DNA of 63,913 bases, filler included, from Folioceros fuciformis (lineage: Eukaryota), in assembly GCA_049999805.1 (NCBI GenBank). It is 5 parts of 5 records of this genome, joined end to end, with 100 filler letters (N's around TTAATTAATTAA, not from the genome) between each part and the next. Parts side by side here need not be neighbours in the genome. Positions count along the whole stretch, not along the records: positions 23,394 to 41,121 come from JBNGIO010005951.1; 4 more parts are not named here. One strand, given 5' to 3'. The notes under the pieces were generated by a model. That model was not told where the DNA came from and did not search any database. It saw only the letters and a program-made list of their open reading frames with translations. Made by a program: the position numbers and the translations under genes. Shown here piece after piece: positions 23,294-33,376 of this stretch. Within the stretch, counting starts at the first letter, position 1; the number at the start of each line of letters is the position of its first letter.

Positions 23294-23393
23294 NNNNNNN
23301 NNNNNNNNNNNNNNNNNNNNNNNNNNNNNNNNNNNNNTTAATTAATTAANNNNNNNNNNNNNNNNNNNNNNNNNNNNNNNNNNNNNNNNNNNN
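23294..23393. other. Artificial contig linker N44-TTAATTAATTAA-N44
   Basis: The same 100-nt spacer with six-frame stops occurs four times in the window. Confidence 0.97.
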
Positions 23394-23435
23394 TTGGCAA
23401 ATTGCGGGGGCTGTGGCCGGGGTGAGGCAGATCCG

Positions 23436-25233
23436 ATGGACGCTGCGCCGGGCGCCGATGCGGAGTTGGTGTGCAAGACGTTGCAGGTGGAGCACAAGCT
23501 CTTCTACTTCGACTTGAAGGAAAATCCGCGTGGCCGATATCTGAAGATCTCGGAGAAGACCTCGGGCTCGCGCTCCACCATCATCGTGCCTGTGGCTGGA
23601 GTCGTGTGGTTTGTAGATCTCTTCACTTATTATGCTACCGGCGAGGATCCCGAGCCTGCGAGCAAGGAATTGCAGCTCGATACTAAGGTAGGCCTTTCTG
23701 CGGGTTGGGTTTTCGGGAAAGACTTTTGCAAATTGCTGCTGCGTCGATGAGATTGTGGTGTGGAGTTGAGGTTGAGGAATGACAACAATTTCCTCAGGTT
23801 TTGATGTGGAAATGTGGTGCCCGCAATGCCGTGCTTGGCTTACGGGTACTGCTGCCTTTTTTTTCTCTTGGTCTTTCGGCTGCTTCGGTGTTCAGCCGTT
23901 TGCCCTATTTCGTCAGGGTGTGTTGGTGCCCGTGCCCTTTCTGTGATGGCTCTCGGAAGCACGTTTTAAAGAACCGTTGTGAAACCGGGGGAATGGCGGT
24001 CGGCGGTGGTACAGCTTGCAAGTTTGTTTGCTAGCTCGTTAACCATGAATGACGTAGCGTCTTGATAGTGGCTGCTCTCAGACCTTTCAAGGTTCTTTGC
24101 AAGAAAATTTTGTTCGATGGAGTGATAGGGGAGCTCATGTGAAGGTGGTTGTGTGCTCACCGTTGTGCGTGAAGTAGTCTGCTGCTGCTTCTGTGAAGTG
24201 ATTCTTGCTTCGTTGAGTGGTCACCCTCTGTTTACACTCTGGAATGGCAGGTGTTCTACTTCGATGTTGGCGAAAATCCAAGGGGCCGATTCTTGAAGGT
24301 ATTGTTGGTTGTCACATGGTCTAGCTGCTGTGATCTAGCTTTCCTTTGCAGTTGCCATTTCTTACGTGCACCGCCTGAGGGTTGAAAGATCTACTTGCCT
24401 GCATTGTGCAGGTCTCAGAAGCCTCTGTGACGAGGAGTCGTAGTACGATCATTGTCCCTGCTGGCAGTGCAGCAGATGAGGGTTGGGCTGCCTTCCGGGA
24501 TGTTCTCATGGAGATTCAAGAAGCTCTACGGGTTATGCATCCCCCACCTAACGGTTTTCTCCCCTCCCAGGTACTCGAATAGGATACAAACCTTGTGCGT
24601 CTGTTGTCTGCAGGTTGTTATGAGCCAAGCTTGGTTGCTTTTACTGATTGGAGCGTCTTTGAGTATCTAGGTTGCTGGCTTCCTGCGATTGAGACTGTTT
24701 GATGTGTGTGTCATTTAAGACTCCAAGCCCTCAAGAACACCTTGGAAGTCTGTCGGATTCTGTTGGTGCTGGATTTCTGCCAAGTGTGAGTTCACAGGCA
24801 ATGACCTCAAGCAGCATTGGGGATCAGTCAATTCACATATCAGGGCCACCAGGCAGTGATCCCGGTGGTATGACATCCGCGGCCAGGGTCATTAGGGCTG
24901 AACAGAAGAAATTCTTCTTTGATCTTGGAAGCAATGCACGAGGCCAGTACCTTCGAATTTCAGAGGTGTGTTCCATCGCTCGCTTTGTGGAAAGCTGGTC
25001 CTTTCTGGAAAGTCATCCATTAGCCTTTCCTGTGAGTGAATCTCTGAGCGCTTCATGTTGTTCAGGTGATTGGAGCTGATCGATCTGCCATCATTCTGCC
25101 TGCTTCCGCTCTGGAGCAATTTCATGAAGCTTTAGGGCAGTTTGTAGAAATGGTGAAAAGTCAAGGCCTAGTGGGAACGGGAGTTGCAAATGTGCGAACT
25201 ATTGGGCCTCCTAGGAAGCGGTCCGACGTCTAG
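23436..25233 (+). CDS. PURA1: Transcription factor Pur-alpha 1 (three PUR repeats), 5 exons
   Basis: Repeats LVCKTLQVEHKLFYFDLKENPRGRYLKISE, SKELQLDTK|VFYFDVGENPRGRFLK|VSE and IRAEQKKFFFDLGSNARGQYLRISE; RSTIIVP motifs; stop at 25231-25233. Confidence 0.95.
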
Positions 25234-25828
25234 AGTGAGGTTTGCTTTGTTTGCCAGTTGGAGCGCCGGTGGAGTTGATTCCTCAGGTACAGATATGTGC
25301 AACAAGCAAGGTGGCAATCGAGGACCCTCATTAGTTGAGATGATGAGCTCACTGCTGCGTGGGGGCAACTCAGATGATACGGCACTCCGCTGCCTCTGAT
25401 TCGGGCTTTTGGTTTTTGCACTGACTTTCCTGTCTTTGTCGTAGAAGTTGGTGGGATGAAAGAGTTCTAACATCCGCATGGCGGGGTGCAGTAGCAGTTG
25501 AGTTGTCTTCAGTGATGTTGGACTGTTTGCATTGCTGTTACTGGGCTTTGCACAGGAGGCATAGGATGTCACCACCTCCTGCTTTTTTTGATGCGTGCTG
25601 CATGAGTTGCAGTCGCCTTCGGAACTGTTGTAGGGATATAGTCTCAGAAATGGCTCTCGTGTTGAGAGTTTCACTGCTTGAGAGGCTGCTACTCGCTAAT
25701 TTGGTCCTTTGTGCGGCCTACCGGCGATTGCAACTACGACGGTGGCCAGTCACTTTAAATTGACTAAATTTCCTCAGGTACCTAAGATGGTTAATCATCT
25801 GCTCAAAACTTGGAGAGAGGCGATGTCA

Positions 25829-28800
25829 CTAGCCGACGTTCCCCCCGCCACTGAGATACGCGTTCCAGCCCACAGTCTCCAACTTCTGCGCTTTGGACAA
25901 AACCGTGTCCGTCATTTCCTCCTGATACCTCAACAGGCTACAGGAGGCAAGTGAAGACAGACACATGAGATGTCAGCACATGGACGGGACATTTTTCACA
26001 GGGAGGCTCTTGAGGGCTGTTAACAACACTCACCGCTGCTGCAACTTGGGATCGAGCGATCCCAGCATCCGGACAGCAAGCAGTCCAGCATTGGTTGCAT
26101 TCTGTATGGCAACTGTGGCAACCGGCACTCCCCTTGGCATCTGAAAGCAACACAAGTCAGGTTATCATCTACGCTGATTACACCACAAGCCATCGTTGTT
26201 GCCACTTACTTGCACAATCGACAACAGGGAGTCCAAGCCATCGGTTGAGGAAGCCTTCACTGGGACTCCGATCACTGGCAGTGGTGTCAGCGCAGCCACC
26301 ATTCCTGCGGAGGAAAGCAGGAACAACCTCTGAGACAATTCGAAACCTCCATGACACCCCTCTGCTGCGTCATGGCAAATGGAAGTCTGCATGGCCAAGA
26401 ACCGTCCGCGGGCGGAAGTACCAGGAAGGTGTGCTGCACCGCCAGCACCTGCGATGATCAACTTACGACCACGGAGGTGTGCTGTTTTTGCATACTCCAC
26501 CATCCTGTCGGGGGTGCGGTGAGCTGACACGATGGTTAGCTGCAACACCAGGGCAGCTCACTGGTCAGGGCAGGACCGGACTGGACCGGGCCGAACCGGA
26601 CGAGGCACTCATCTACTTGTCCAACATGATCTCTCCGTAGCTAGCAAGCGGAGAACCAGACCACACCAAAACACACAGCTGTGCTACCACGCGAAAGGTG
26701 GCTACCCGCACCTCGTAAGGGATATCGAAACTTTCCAAGATCTCAGCAGCAGCCTTCATTACAGGCAAGTCTGAATCAGACCCCATGATGACGGAAACAA
26801 GGGGGGCAACTGCAGGGAGAGCAGAACCAGGGAATTGAGCAGAGTGAGCCTCACGCGCTTGACTGAGGAGAAACAGGCAGTGGCAAATGGAAGCGAGGAA
26901 GGAAGAATTCTGCAAGCCAGGAAGTTTGCTAACGTGCACTTGCCTGGGGGTTCTGAGGGTTCCGAGACTGCGGTGGAGGTGATGGGAATTAACCGAGCGG
27001 GGTCACCAACCACTGCGTCCACTCGGCTCCTCACCACGGATGCTGATGGGCCAACGACAGTGATATGCCCCATCTTCCGCTGTTTCCGGATCTCTGAGGG
27101 AAATGGAGTGAGAACGACAAGACAATTGGAATGCTCTAACTGGGAAGACGCTAGTCCACGAGTTGCAGTTTCACCACTGCAGATGATCACTTTACCTGGT
27201 TTCTCATACCAATGGACGCTTGCTCCTGGAACTGCCACAGCTCTCCTCATCACCTGATGAGCCACACGAAACCCTGCATCTCCCTGCACCAGAGTGAGTA
27301 GGACGCTAAGCTACTTGATCTACAAACCAAAATGCTGCCTCTGCTGGGTGTATGGGGTCAAACGCAGCAGCTTGGCCGACTTTGAAAACAGAAGGAATTG
27401 AAGGTGGGAAGGACCTCATCCTCTCCAAGCAAGTTGACCATGAATGCCGCAGGCACCTTCATCGATGTGTCACCAAGTGGCAATCCTAGAATTGCACGAA
27501 GATGCTGTTCGTACTGAGAGACGTAACAGGCCTCTATGGTGTAGTGACCGCTGTTATGAGGCCTAGGAGCAACCTCGTTCAAAAGCACCTGCGGTAGTCG
27601 GAATCATACCTTCACGTTCAGGAAGATGTGTGAAACAGAACGATGTGATCCTGTTCTGGAAGTCGATGCACACGGCCCCGACATTCCACAAAAGCAAGCC
27701 ACGATGAGCAATATGCAGGCCAATTACCTCTCCATTGGCAAGTAAAAACAATTCCACGCCGAAGACCCCAGCGCCTTCCAAAGAAGCTACTGCTCGTTGT
27801 GCAATGTCCAGAGCAGCCTCAGCAGCCGCATGAGATATTTGAGCTGGTGCCTCTACTGTATGGCATATACTGTCTCTGAGAAACAGGGAAAGCAAACCCT
27901 CAAACCCCATGGGAGAACATACATACATACATACCACAACTGAGAGACACAACATTCATGACGAGTCTAGTGTTCTCAAACCGAGCATCACCGCAAAGAA
28001 CTCTCACCTATGTGTAGTCTCCACTACTGGAAATGAACGAATGCTCGCATCACGACCTCTTGCAACCATGACTGCCAGCTCCTGACATGTACACTATCTT
28101 ATTGTCACCACAACCCTCATGAAAGACCCTCAGAAATATCTGCCTATAGTTAACGCTCCCAGACCTTCACAAAGGGCGCCCATTTTTCTGCATATAGTCC
28201 TCGCTCGAAGCCACCCAATGCTGCAAGACAGGAACATGGCAGTCAAACATGAGGCCCGAGTTTGCTTCTTCCCACATTTAGAAGGGGGTTTCGAACCTCA
28301 CAATCCACAGCCTTCATCAATTCCTCTTTCGTGCGGGCTACAGCATTGCCCCTTCCGTCGTAAGCAAGCCTTTGGCTCTTGACCATCAAAGGATAACCAA
28401 AACGAGCACCAGCTTCTTCTGCAGTCTCTATATTGTCTATCTGTCACAAGTTCGTCAGTCGATACCAGGCCATCTGCTTGCTGTGCGTTCAGCAGAGCTT
28501 GAATATTGGGCAGGAAGCAAACCCCAGCCCAATATCATACAAGGCCTGGTATGGCGGAGAATAGGAAAACAAATCACCTTCATGAAGGCAGGAACGGGAA
28601 CTCCACGTGAACTGAAGTATTGTTTCTGCAGGTACTTGTCCTGCACCGAAGCACATAATCCGGCATCAGGCAGAGACGAAAGCAGCTGGAAGCAAGGCAA
28701 ACAGGCTGTGCGTGAAACAACATCGAACCTGAATCATGCGGATGGTGAAAGGTTTTGGCTCGATATCCACACCTTCGCTTGCAAGAGAGTCGAGCGTGTC

Positions 28801-29515
28801 GACATCCACATGTTCAATCTCTACAGTCAAAGCACCACACCTGGTTCACAAACCCATCCAGATTTTCAGAAGCCTCCAGATGCACACAAGATCTGCACAC
28901 ATTGGACAGAGGAAGCGTTACCGTTTTGCGAATTCTCGCACAGCATTGGTGTCACGAAAGCTCCCCACTGTGTGCAGAAAGGCGATACCACTGGCTGGGC
29001 AGTCCTCCAGGGGATCCAGTATCGCTATCTTGATCCCCATCTGGGACGCAGCTTGACACAGCATGCGCCCCAGCTGCCCACCACCCAGGACGCCCACCAC
29101 CGTATCGCAAAGGCCCACCACAGAAGTGCACAGGTCATCGCTGCGACAAGGAGCACCCATGTCACACAATGCACCCAGCGAATCAAGCTGGCAGCCCACG
29201 GAACACCACACAAAGACAGAATTGCCTCCTTCTGTACCATTCGGTGAGCCTTGCAGAACCATCGGTCATGACTGCAGACACTGAATTGTCCGCCGCAGCT
29301 GAGCAACCCGATTTCACAAGCTTCCGCCCACCTTCGGGCACGAGCCAGGCCCTGCCTCTTCCAGAAGTCCGCGTCGGCCCCGAGCATTCAAGCCTGAACG
29401 CTGACAGCCTGGGACAGCAGCAGCTCTGCAAATACGAGGATAGACGTCCCCTGAGCCCCTCGCCCGACGACCATGCTAGCCAGTTCGCAGGGTAGGAGTG
29501 GCACAGGGCCCCCAT
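25829..29515 (-). CDS. PUR6: Phosphoribosylaminoimidazole (AIR) carboxylase, PurK-PurE fusion, plastid-targeted
   Basis: PurK motifs [54 protein letters not shown]. PurE motifs [54 protein letters not shown]. The exon-1 ATG (MGALCHSYP...) is inferred. Confidence 0.94.
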
Positions 29516-29659
29516 GTCCCGTATCACCGATTCTTCTTCTCGGATAGCTCCGGAAGCCGGCTTTTAGAAGGATTTGTTCAAGCCTGTCACGAACTACATT
29601 GTTGCTGTTGCTGATAAATTCAAATCTAGGTCTCTTCTCCTTGCAAACAGCTTGAGAGC
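29516..29659. promoter_or_regulatory. Putative shared bidirectional promoter / overlapping 5' UTRs of PUR6 and PUR2
   Basis: Only 144 bp separate the two divergent predicted ATGs. Confidence 0.6.
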
Positions 29660-31729
29660 ATGGCTACGATGGCTGCGATGGCAGCGCCGTGTGCGAATGG
29701 AGTCGACTCCAGGAAGCTGGCTTGCACTGCATTCACGTGTACTGGCACTGGCAGGCCCTGCTGCATTCGTGCATCTTCCGCTGCCTGGAGGTTGCCGAGT
29801 CCGAGCTTGAGGAAAGCGGTGTTGGAGGAAGATGTGGGCAGTCGGCGAGCAGCTACTGGTTGGAAAGCTGAGGAGGAAAGTGCTACTCGCAAGAGCCCGA
29901 AGCCACTTCCAAATCAAGGGGTAAGCATGGACGATGGTTGTTGTAGGGATGCTTTGTCACTCTTGTTTAGATCTTGTTTGTTGAATTTTGGAGTGTCAAG
30001 GATTGTCGTGGGCGATGAATGGCAGGCTGCTGCGGAGCCGGTCCCTGACGGTGCGGGAGGTGTGAACGTGCTTGTGATCGGCGGAGGCGGGAGGGAACAT
30101 GCTCTTTGCCATGCCCTGCGCCTTTCACGTTCCTGCAGCAATGTATTCTGTGCTCCGGGGAATGCTGGGATCTCTGCAGATGGCAGTGCAACGTGTGTGG
30201 AGTGGCTTGACGTATCCAGAAACGATGCCGTACTCTCCTTCTGCGCCAAGTATGGAGTAGGGTTGGTAGTTGTCGGGCCAGAGGCACCGCTTGTGGCAGG
30301 GCTGGTGGACTATCTGACGGAATACGGGATTCCCACATTCGGGCCCTCTCAAAGGGCTGCAGCATTGGAAGGATCTAAGGACTTTATGAAGCGGATCTGT
30401 GACAAGTACGATATCCCTACAGCCAAGGTTGTCCAACCAACACGCCAATCCTGGCAGTGGCAATGCAGTGACGAGATAGATTTGATGGATGCTAGTTGCT
30501 TGTATCCCCGTCCCGTCCCAGTGAGGAGATAGACTTGATGGATGCTAGTTGCTTGAATCCTTCCCTTCCCATCCCTTGAAGATGGATTTGATGGATGTTA
30601 GTTGCTTGAATACCTTGCCCTCCCGCCCCTCCAGCTGTGAGTGTCTGTCTCATGACGGCTCATGTGCATGCAGTATCGATCCTTCTCAGACCCATCAGCT
30701 GCCAAGGCCTACATACAAGAGCAAGGAGTGCCGATTGTCGTCAAGGCTGACGGACTGGCAGCTGGCAAGGGTGTGATAATAGCAGAGACTTTGCAGGATG
30801 CCTTTGATGCTGTGGACTCCATGCTCTTGGCGAAGACTTTTGGCCAGGCGGGAGCAGTGATTGTGGTGGAAGAGTTTTTGGATGGCGAGGAGGCATCCTT
30901 CTTTGCAGTGGTCGATGGTGAGCATGCTGTCCCATTGGCCTCGGCCCAGGATCACAAGCGTGTGGGGGATGGGGATACAGGGCCCAACACCGGAGGAATG
31001 GGGGCCTACTCCCCTGCTCCAGTCTTAACTCCCCGGCTGGAGGCGGTGATCATGGATAGCATTATCTTGCCCACAGTCAAGGGAATGGCAGCCGAAGGAG
31101 CCCCATTCGTAGGCGTTCTCTACGCAGGAGTAATCATCGAAACTAAAACGGGAATGCCCAAGCTCTTGGAATACAACGTCCGTTTTGGAGACCCAGAGTG
31201 TCAGGTATGCTCACCCTATTTAACACGACCAAGTACTTTTTTCCTCCCCTTCCACCCTCCTTCCTTCCCTTACCTTCTTCCCTGCTGTGCACAGGTTCTG
31301 ATGATGCGTCTCAAGTCAGATCTCGTGCAGCTGTTGATGAAAGCTTGCGCAGGGCAACTGGAGGGAGTCCGTTTGGAGTGGGATGAGTCCCCTGCACTGG
31401 TTGTGGTATTGGCTAGCAAAGGTTACCCTGGCTCATATGTCAAGGGCTCCATTATCAGAAACCTCGAGGAGGCTGAGACCCTGGACCAAGGAGTGAAGAT
31501 ATTCCATGCAGGCACAGCCTACGATGACTCACACAACCTGGTTGCAGTCGGGGGCAGGGTACTGGGAGTTGTAGCCCTGGCTCCAGACATTCGAGCTGCC
31601 CAAGAGAAGGCTTACGACGCTGTGGATGTAATAGACTGGCGAGATGGTTTCTGCAGGCGCGACATAGGATGGCGGGCTGTCTCTCGACTGCTAGAAGCAA
31701 GACCACCGAAGTCCAAATTACTTACGTGA
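29660..31729 (+). CDS. PUR2: Phosphoribosylamine--glycine ligase (GAR synthetase, PurD), plastid-targeted; 4 exons
   Basis: [102 protein letters not shown]. Confidence 0.97.
30473..30620. repeat. Three ~54-bp tandem copies within PUR2 intron 2
   Basis: gatRgaYttgatggatgYtagttgcttg at ~30475, ~30528 and ~30581. Confidence 0.85.
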
Positions 31730-32066
31730 CACCAACATGGCTGGCTGGCTGGCTGGGATTAGGTAGGAACGTGACTCACTACTTGCCAGGTGGGTTTGGT
31801 AAACACACCAGATGTAGCTAACTTCACGTAGAGCAGACAATTTTGCTGTCACCTTCCAAGGGTAGCATTCGGCACCTTTCCATCTTTAACGATTCCCTCC
31901 CTTTTCTTGCACTTGGAGGCAAATACCGTGAAGACCTTCTTGTGGAGGGGGGCTTTTTCCCAGTTTCACCAACGCCCCAACGTGCAGTGAACCAAAGACC
32001 CCTTCCCGATTAAACAAACCCGCGTGGAGGTCTTCATTCCGGCCGAGCCAGGGAGGAGGGCTGGCG

Positions 32067-33376
32067 ATGGCACACGCAGCAATGCGGGGCCCCTTGGCTG
32101 CGGCCTCCTCCTCGACCTCGGTGCCGCACGGTGCACCATCTCCATCGCCATCCGTCTGGGGGGCCGCGTGCTCGCCGTCCTCCTCCTTCTCCTGGTCCCA
32201 TGGCGACTTCTCCAGGCGGGCAGAGGCGGGAGCCATGGCGTCGAGCGCCAGTCCGCTGGGACTGGCGAATTCCGTGCGTTCGGGGAGAAATTGCAGGCGG
32301 TTTGATGTTTGGATGGTGAGGTCGGGGTTTTTCGGGTCCTGGGAGGGGAGGAGGTGGCCGTCCCTGTGCTGCTCTTTGATTACAGAACCGCACCAGCGAG
32401 GGAAGCGCCAGGGTTTTCTGCCGGTAGGCGAACGTAGGCCCTGTTTAACCTGGCATTCTCTTGGCTGTGCTACACATGTTAGGTCTATTTGGCCGGATTT
32501 CTTGTTTGTTCCAGGACGAATTGATGCCTCATGGAGGTGGACTGTGTGAGGGAATTCGACTTCCCTAAGCTGCGCAATTCTAAGTTTCGGTGCTGTCCAG
32601 GTTAGAGCCGCTGCCGGACCGAGTGACGGGGTGAGGTGGTGGGAGAAGGAAGCAGGACCGAATGTGCACGATATTCATTCAACGCAGGAGTTTATTGATG
32701 CTCTTTCTAAAGCCGGGGACAAGCTTGTGGTTGTGGAGTTTTTCGCTACCTGGTGTGGCTCGTGCCGCGCTTTGTATCCTAAGGTACGTGCACAATTCGG
32801 ATGCGTAAGCACATGAAGAGAGTGCGAGTTAACATACAGAATCTCTGTTGCGGTGGGGCTAGCGTGACATCGCATGTTGGTCATGGTGTGTAAGCCTGTG
32901 TCTCTTACTAGTTGGTTCTGATCGTGTATGGTTTTTTTTTTGCTTTCTAGTTCTGCAAGCTGGCAGCAGAGCACGAGAATGTGGATTTTCTCAAGGTCAA
33001 CTTCGATGAAAACAAGCCGATGTGCAAGAGCTTAAACATCAAAGTTTTACCTTTTTTTCACTTTTATCGGGGGGCGGATGGGCGTTTGGATGCATTTTCA
33101 TGTTCTTTGTCCAAGGTACGGCTTCTTGCGTTGGCATTTCTGGAAGCACCGAGTTTTTACCTCAATTGCAACCTCCTTGTAGTGGGCGTTTCGGGATTGC
33201 GTTTGGCAAGCGCTGACTAGTTTGGTGCTTTGCAGTTGCAAAAGCTCAAAGATGCAATTGCGACCCACAATACTGATAGGTGTAGTATCGGCCCCCCGCT
33301 TGGGGTTGGAGACATTGACTTCACCGCTCCAGTAAGCACGTCGGACCAACCTGCTGCAGCCGGCACCTCAAGATGA
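32067..33376 (+). CDS. ACHT: Atypical Cys/His-rich (Lilium-type) chloroplast thioredoxin with WCGSC active site
   Basis: WWEKEAGPN...STQEFIDAL...[52 protein letters not shown]...[18 protein letters not shown]. Transit-like exon 1. Confidence 0.92.

Follow-up and report, generated by a model that had tools for sequence, protein, structure and literature searches.

Divergent PUR6 and PUR2 purine biosynthesis genes 144 bp apart in Folioceros fuciformis: a lineage-specific pairing of probably neutral origin

Bacteria cluster their pur genes, including purEK and purD, in pur operons. In animals the aminoimidazole ribonucleotide (AIR) carboxylase is a fusion of PurE with SAICAR synthetase, and the vertebrate gene pair that includes it (PPAT-PAICS, described in chicken and human as GPAT-AIRC) is reportedly conserved and functionally dissected. 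Plant metabolic clusters usually hold three or more genes and belong to specialised metabolism. PPAT/PAICS is tabulated as a potential bidirectional promoter of the human genome, with a distance of 70 (PMC2871058), a second source describes a common bidirectional promoter for the two genes (PMC2444028), and joint binding by Myc is reported as well (PMC2871058, PMC2444028). Head-to-head genes with starts well below 1 kb apart are described as common in plant genomes such as rice and maize (PMC4997330, PMC5045660, PMC4035068). Here we describe a head-to-head pair in a 63,913-nucleotide stretch of DNA from Folioceros fuciformis (assembly GCA_049999805.1), the whole of which is called the window below. 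The pair consists of PUR6, encoding AIR carboxylase (step 6 of the de novo purine pathway), and PUR2, encoding glycinamide ribonucleotide (GAR) synthetase (step 2). A full-text literature search found no report of a PUR2-PUR6 pairing in plants or of a bidirectional purine promoter in plants. We consider it probable that the pair has a neutral, lineage-specific origin and that the two genes share a housekeeping promoter incidentally.

The features of the locus are as follows.

25829-29515, minus strand: PUR6 coding region, a PurK-PurE fusion AIR carboxylase, 16 exons, 675 amino acids (aa); stop codon 25829-25831, ATG at 29515
25938-26033, 26141-26209, 26305-26421 and 26540-26711, minus strand: PUR6 introns, from RNA-contig joints
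26810-26943 (GC donor), 27094-27195, 27284-27414 and 27589-27727, minus strand: PUR6 introns, from RNA-contig joints
27876-28007, 28082-28164, 28221-28301 and 28441-28577, minus strand: PUR6 introns, from RNA-contig joints
28641-28728, 28841-28921 and 29141-29237, minus strand: the three 5′-most PUR6 introns, placed by the exon-letter constraint of the RNA contig together with homology
29516-29659, no strand: ATG-to-ATG spacer, 144 bp, 46% GC
29516-29567, minus strand: PUR6 5′ leader, covered minimum of 52 nt, no upstream ATG
29568-29610, no strand: stretch under neither transcript contig, ~43 nt, 42% GC, TATA-less; presumed core of a shared promoter
29611-29659, plus strand: PUR2 5′ leader, covered minimum of 49 nt, CT-rich, no upstream ATG; start estimated from depth
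29660-31729, plus strand: PUR2 coding region, GAR synthetase of the PurD type, 4 exons, 542 aa; ATG at 29660
29660-29920, 30026-30427, 30674-31204 and 31295-31729, plus strand: PUR2 exons, from Pfam, tblastn, a splice-site search and RNA contigs

The first-pass annotation of this DNA had the two genes diverging from start codons at 29515 (minus strand) and 29660 (plus strand), about 144 bp apart. Both positions were confirmed and the distance is exactly 144 bp; each ATG is the first in its transcript contig. With their starts less than 1 kb apart, the genes thus form a divergently paired, bidirectional-promoter type of gene pair.

The identity of PUR6 was established from domains, homology and transcript contigs. 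Pfam matches on exon-sized open reading frames (ORFs) comprise the RS_preATP-grasp domain (PF22660, E 2.1e-18), ATP-grasp on separate exon ORFs (PF02222, E 1.1e-09 and 2.5e-11) and AIRC on three exon ORFs (PF00731, E 2.8e-27, 2.6e-12 and 1.2e-09). The N-terminal PurK part of a PUR6/ADE2-type AIR carboxylase, with its pre-ATP-grasp and ATP-grasp domains, is therefore present, and the C-terminal PurE (AIRC) part lies on the same polypeptide, as a single RNA contig of 3298 nt spans the gene from its first exon to its last. Plant PUR6 proteins gave collinear tblastn matches from 29217 down to 25850 and a single copy in the window. The model is 68–76% identical to seven plant orthologues over approximately aa 95–668, and 52% identical to fission-yeast Ade6. 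In a quick tree the protein fell among the embryophytes beside one protein (76% identical, blastp), while the moss, liverwort, lycophyte, fern and seed-plant sequences of the sample were placed elsewhere. Among its relatives, P0121 (ENA, 719 aa) has a PurE part doubled in tandem; in tblastn, its residues 339–513 and 550–717 both match window positions 26828-25850.

The PUR6 introns are short (69–172 nt) and the genes compact, features that, like the position in the tree, might suit a hornwort. All but one of the 12 intron joints listed read CT..AC on the plus strand, corresponding to GT..AG in the direction of the gene. The odd one out is the intron at 26810-26943 (minus strand), whose GC..AG boundary appears as CT..GC on the plus strand and is supported by an RNA-contig joint. 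The three 5′-most introns were set by the requirement for 394 exon letters within 28578-29237, by the open frame and by homology. Two other models for introns 13 and 14 satisfied the length constraint and were rejected, as they broke the homology.

PUR2 carries the three domains of a GAR synthetase in their usual order: GARS_N (PF02844, E 6.8e-33), GARS_A, an ATP-grasp domain (PF01071, E 7.8e-73), and GARS_C (PF02843, E 1.2e-29). Four land-plant PUR2 proteins matched this locus and nowhere else in the window (tblastn). The model is 68–73% identical to all but one of eight plant orthologues over approximately aa 100–535; the remaining one, Marchantia P0013, is 63% identical over a longer span (aa 38–532). 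Intron 1 was placed at 29921-30025 (105 nt) because this gives a canonical GT..AG intron and keeps the ATG at 29660 in frame; the break in the RNA contig falls at 29919/30025. One G could belong to either side of this joint, and the alternative of 29921-30024 (104 nt) was rejected as out of frame. Contig ends delimit intron 2 (30428-30673), for which a single splice pair preserves both frame and homology, and intron 3 (31205-31294) is skipped by another RNA contig (break at 31201/31292). Within intron 2, a tandem repeat with a 53-nt unit (2.7 copies, 84% matches) lies at 30466-30611.

Both are genuine nuclear plant genes with intact frames, one for AIR carboxylase and one for GAR synthetase. 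This agrees with the earlier statement that the locus is not bacterial contamination: the domains, the RNA joints and the 63–76% identity to plant orthologues describe plant-type, intron-bearing nuclear genes. Each protein has an N-terminal extension of approximately 100 aa ahead of its conserved core, and acidic residues are few at the N-terminus (two among the first 50 aa in PUR6, one in PUR2). Such a composition fits a transit peptide, and both enzymes may be targeted to plastids.

Contigs of four public runs were placed on 25000-32500. The 3086-nt DNA contig of a related organism (B) bridges 27682-30501 in two pieces (27682-29936 and 29978-30501), and the 7067-nt DNA contig of another (D) bridges 25054-30509 in pieces, with 28571-29779 unbroken. 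The spacer is thus crossed unbroken by X5 record 12 (27682-29936) and X8 record 15 (28571-29779). Counting differing letters only, B and D are ~89–91% identical to the window. A contig of a third organism (E, run X13) ends at 30602 in the intron 2 repeat of PUR2 and is uninformative on adjacency; the contigs of D and E both break at this repeat, near 30509 and 30602. As the same junction occurs in two independent assemblies of relatives, there is almost no room for a mis-join between the genes, which the first-pass annotation had named as a possible undoing of its claim. These DNA bridges come from the two related organisms rather than from the window's own species.

In order to assess the age of the pairing we looked for PUR2 and PUR6 in other land plants. 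The sample consisted of the bryophytes Physcomitrium patens, Marchantia polymorpha, M. paleacea, Riccia sorocarpa and R. fluitans; the lycophyte Selaginella moellendorffii with the ferns Adiantum nelumboides and Ceratopteris richardii; the conifers Cryptomeria japonica and Taxus chinensis; and the flowering plants Coptis chinensis, Vanilla planifolia, Acer yangbiense, A. saccharum, Salix suchowensis, Iris pallida, Dioscorea alata, Trifolium repens, Hibiscus syriacus, Chenopodium quinoa and Pistacia atlantica. Malus domestica and M. baccata were excluded from the count, as their entries come from different assemblies. Synteny was judged from the names, locus tags and contig sizes returned with protein searches and from a protein-cluster look-up; the contig size given is the longest per protein cluster, so that the comparison could mix assemblies where tags are absent.

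The two genes were adjacent in none of these 21 other embryophyte species with both genes listed. They lie on contigs of different size in 20 of them. Locus tags of one annotation are available for both genes in 13 species and differ by ~1,400 to 270,000 units, as in the pairs R1sor_015665/R1sor_000805 and SUGI_0389370/SUGI_0116090; in Ceratopteris, one of the 13, the genes are split between chromosome 14 and an unplaced scaffold. Pistacia atlantica has an equal contig size for both genes, with tags ~1,400 apart, the PUR6-side entry being a 309-aa PurE-only protein. Since no other embryophyte sampled keeps PUR2 and PUR6 adjacent, the pairing is not ancestral in land plants and is derived in this lineage. 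The synteny comparison that the first-pass annotation had proposed in support of a co-regulated pair therefore went against it in the land plants sampled. Adjacency was retained only in the two relatives that are ~90% identical in DNA. The pair narrowly escapes being confined to a single species, which had been named beforehand as a result that would tell against co-regulation; it does not clearly pass on this point, because in relatives this close a 144-bp spacer would stay intact without selection.

Both genes are transcribed, as spliced contigs of each were found in one run. This RNA-like run (X3) comes from the same organism as the window but from a different sample and study, and its RNA label is a guess. 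Five of the six placed X3 contigs are at least 99% alike to the window. They skip 12 PUR6 introns (among the joints listed) and PUR2 intron 3, and only spliced RNA can have given rise to contigs without introns. The 3298-nt PUR6 contig (X3 record 6) begins at 29567, with a first piece at 29567..29238, and then continues down through the gene. For PUR2, the last 403 letters of a 712-nt contig (X3 record 7) lie on 30025-30427, and its first 309 letters map to approximately 29611-29919 (158 nt in the bin 29518-29768 and 151 nt in the bin 29769-30019). Contig depth cannot rank the genes by expression. On the 3′ side, the PUR6 contig runs past the coding region to 25064 and the contig with the PUR2 3′ exons to 32425, across an ORF at 31889-32674, both then continuing with letters that have no place there. 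On the 5′ side the two contigs remain separate although their 3′ ends run on, which suggests that the transcribed regions abut, probably without much overlap.

With transcribed regions only ~43 nt apart, both core promoters must sit in the 144-bp spacer, on the same few dozen bases, and the spacer probably works as a single bidirectional promoter that is TATA-less and nucleosome-free. Nine plant motif patterns (site II, telo-box, E2F, TATA, G-box, CCAAT, GCN4-like, GAGA and ACGT core) gave no match in 29450-29720. No inverted repeat was found around the spacer, and the single direct repeat detected consists of two 9-nt copies within the start region of PUR2. These motif and repeat scans of the spacer region thus revealed no recognisable cis-element common to PUR6 and PUR2.

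The closest described counterpart is the vertebrate PPAT-PAICS pair, and the parallel drawn by the first-pass annotation is real. In both cases two non-homologous genes of de novo purine synthesis diverge from a very short spacer, and one of the two encodes AIR carboxylase activity. The partner differs: it is the step 1 amidophosphoribosyltransferase in vertebrates and the step 2 GAR synthetase here. The carboxylase differs as well, the PurE-SAICAR synthetase fusion of animals standing against the PurK-PurE type in the window. Moreover, the vertebrate pair is said to be conserved and functionally dissected, whereas the present one is known from sequence and kept in two close relatives. Plant bidirectional pairs in general share the head-to-head arrangement with starts well below 1 kb apart, but most do not combine two enzymes of the same pathway, and a spacer of 144 bp would be at the short extreme.

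The likeness to bacterial pur operons is limited to the physical linkage of homologous enzymes. In the window the genes are monocistronic, spliced and divergent, and PurK and PurE are fused. Plant metabolic clusters, too, bring together non-homologous genes of one pathway in the nucleus, but here the pathway contributes just two genes, both from primary metabolism, and the genes around them are unrelated. The earlier description of the pair as an operon-like mini-cluster is not appropriate: the two separate mRNAs diverge, so the pair is not an operon, and with only two pathway genes among unrelated neighbours it is not a metabolic cluster. Such clusters and operon-like units hold at least three pathway genes or yield a polycistronic transcript, neither of which applies here.

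How, then, did the pair come about? We think it probable that a rearrangement within this plant's lineage brought PUR6 and PUR2 head to head. The same-pathway pairing would most likely have begun by chance, and at least two close relatives share the paired arrangement by descent; some common basal, housekeeping-type expression would be an expected by-product of the shared spacer. Several points weigh against this account. That the sharing of expression is a by-product and nothing more is an expectation, not a demonstration. With 9–12 purine genes among 15,000–35,000 genes, 0.002–0.009 adjacent purine pairs are expected per genome by chance, and one quarter of that number as divergent pairs; a chance purine pair is thus expected in only 0.2–0.9% of genomes, which leaves room for a selective explanation, although this low figure applies to one pre-chosen genome and the pair was noticed post hoc within a very large scan. 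AIR carboxylase is also found head to head in vertebrates, and by this analogy the arrangement may bring a recurring advantage. Extra copies of PUR2 or PUR6 may exist elsewhere in the genome, copies having been counted in the window. Finally, contigs show neither true transcript starts nor strands, so that the 43-nt figure is approximate, and the PUR2 contig start at ~29611 was derived from depth bins rather than read directly.

The pair might instead be a selected, co-regulated two-gene purine module, in which one bidirectional promoter balances GAR synthetase with the CO2-dependent AIR carboxylase, and which arose independently of vertebrate PPAT-PAICS, converges on it and is conserved across this plant's whole lineage. 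The very tight spacing (144 bp between the ATGs and ~43 nt between the transcript contigs), the presence of both genes among the RNA contigs of one run, the retention in two relatives and the low chance prior of 0.2–0.9% per genome would all suit such a module, and the jointly Myc-bound PPAT/PAICS promoter provides a precedent. We nevertheless regard it as unlikely. Retention is seen only at ~90% DNA identity, where the spacer would survive without selection, the pairing occurs in none of the 21 other land plants, the spacer scans detected no shared or palindromic element, and the case was picked post hoc from a very large scan. The broadest form of this idea, that, separately from the vertebrate case, AIR carboxylase was recruited again into a head-to-head pair with an early gene of the pathway, and that selection kept this pair as a minimal co-regulated purine module throughout an ancient land-plant lineage, appears to us more doubtful still.

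Adjacency would be irrelevant to the pathway if one of the genes were a redundant or decaying duplicate with its working copy elsewhere. Copy number was counted within the window, and several plants have two copies (for example two PUR2 in Chenopodium quinoa and several PUR6 entries in Salix). Against this, the frames of 675 and 542 aa are intact and align end to end with orthologues, both genes are spliced and present in RNA contigs, and the window holds a single copy of each, so that a duplicate seems very improbable. Least probable of all, to a degree that we would hardly expect it, is an artefact or foreign origin, be it a mis-join, bacterial contamination or a recently transferred fragment of a bacterial pur operon. 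Bacteria do cluster pur genes, and the DNA bridges come from organisms other than the window's own; yet DNA contigs of two such organisms cross the junction, PUR6 and PUR2 contain 15 and 3 spliceosomal introns, the PurK-PurE fusion is of eukaryote type, and both genes are 63–76% identical to land-plant orthologues. The bacterial purD loci that we recovered look different. When metagenomes were scanned with PUR2 exon 2, 598 stretches fitted the pattern, of which three encode a relative. These three purD loci are intronless, have 68–72% GC and are 35–53% identical; they are presumably bacterial and thus uninformative on plant synteny, and tblastn of their flanks with plant PUR6 found no PurK or PurE nearby.

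On present evidence, the neutral, lineage-specific pairing that we favour amounts mainly to a clean annotation, backed by RNA contigs, of a pair of purine genes and to an example of a same-pathway neighbour pair arising late within one lineage. Should the pairing prove to be under selection, it would represent a convergent parallel to the PPAT-PAICS promoter of vertebrates and would provide a compact natural bidirectional promoter for two predicted plastid-targeted housekeeping enzymes. Such a promoter would be useful as a small part for expression in two directions and for studies of how primary metabolism is co-regulated. Selection throughout the lineage would further make it a rare functional constraint on gene order for primary metabolism in a plant nucleus.

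The surrounding DNA is eukaryotic plant nuclear DNA with ~52% GC, and intron-split genes occur every few kb up to ~41 kb. Next to the pair lie genes for a Pur-alpha DNA-binding protein and for an SNF2 helicase, together with an ORF without family, none of them tied to purine synthesis. Past the 3′ end of PUR6, the region 23346-25079 (plus strand) encodes a Pur-alpha-type single-stranded DNA/RNA-binding protein (PF04845 on two exon ORFs), which despite its name is unrelated to purine synthesis. The PUR6 contig, which reaches 25064, overlaps the end of the Pur-alpha ORF (at 25079) by 16 bases. The convergent PUR6 and Pur-alpha transcripts may therefore overlap at their 3′ ends, or the 3′ untranslated region (UTR) of PUR6 may exceed 760 nt. 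On the other side, the ORF at 31889-32674 (minus strand, 262 aa, no Pfam family) is possibly a convergent neighbour that overlaps the PUR2 3′ UTR.

Over the whole window, Rfam gave no matches and a tRNA scan no genes. Between 46001 and 50000 the GC content is raised to 0.56–0.66 with a strongly negative GC skew of −0.22 to −0.30, and this region contains long ORFs without a Pfam family. Remains of Ty1/copia retrotransposons occupy at least four separate stretches of 41177-61987 on both strands, with the domains RVT_2, rve, gag_pre-integrs, Retrotran_gag_2, Pol_BBD and SH3_retrovirus.

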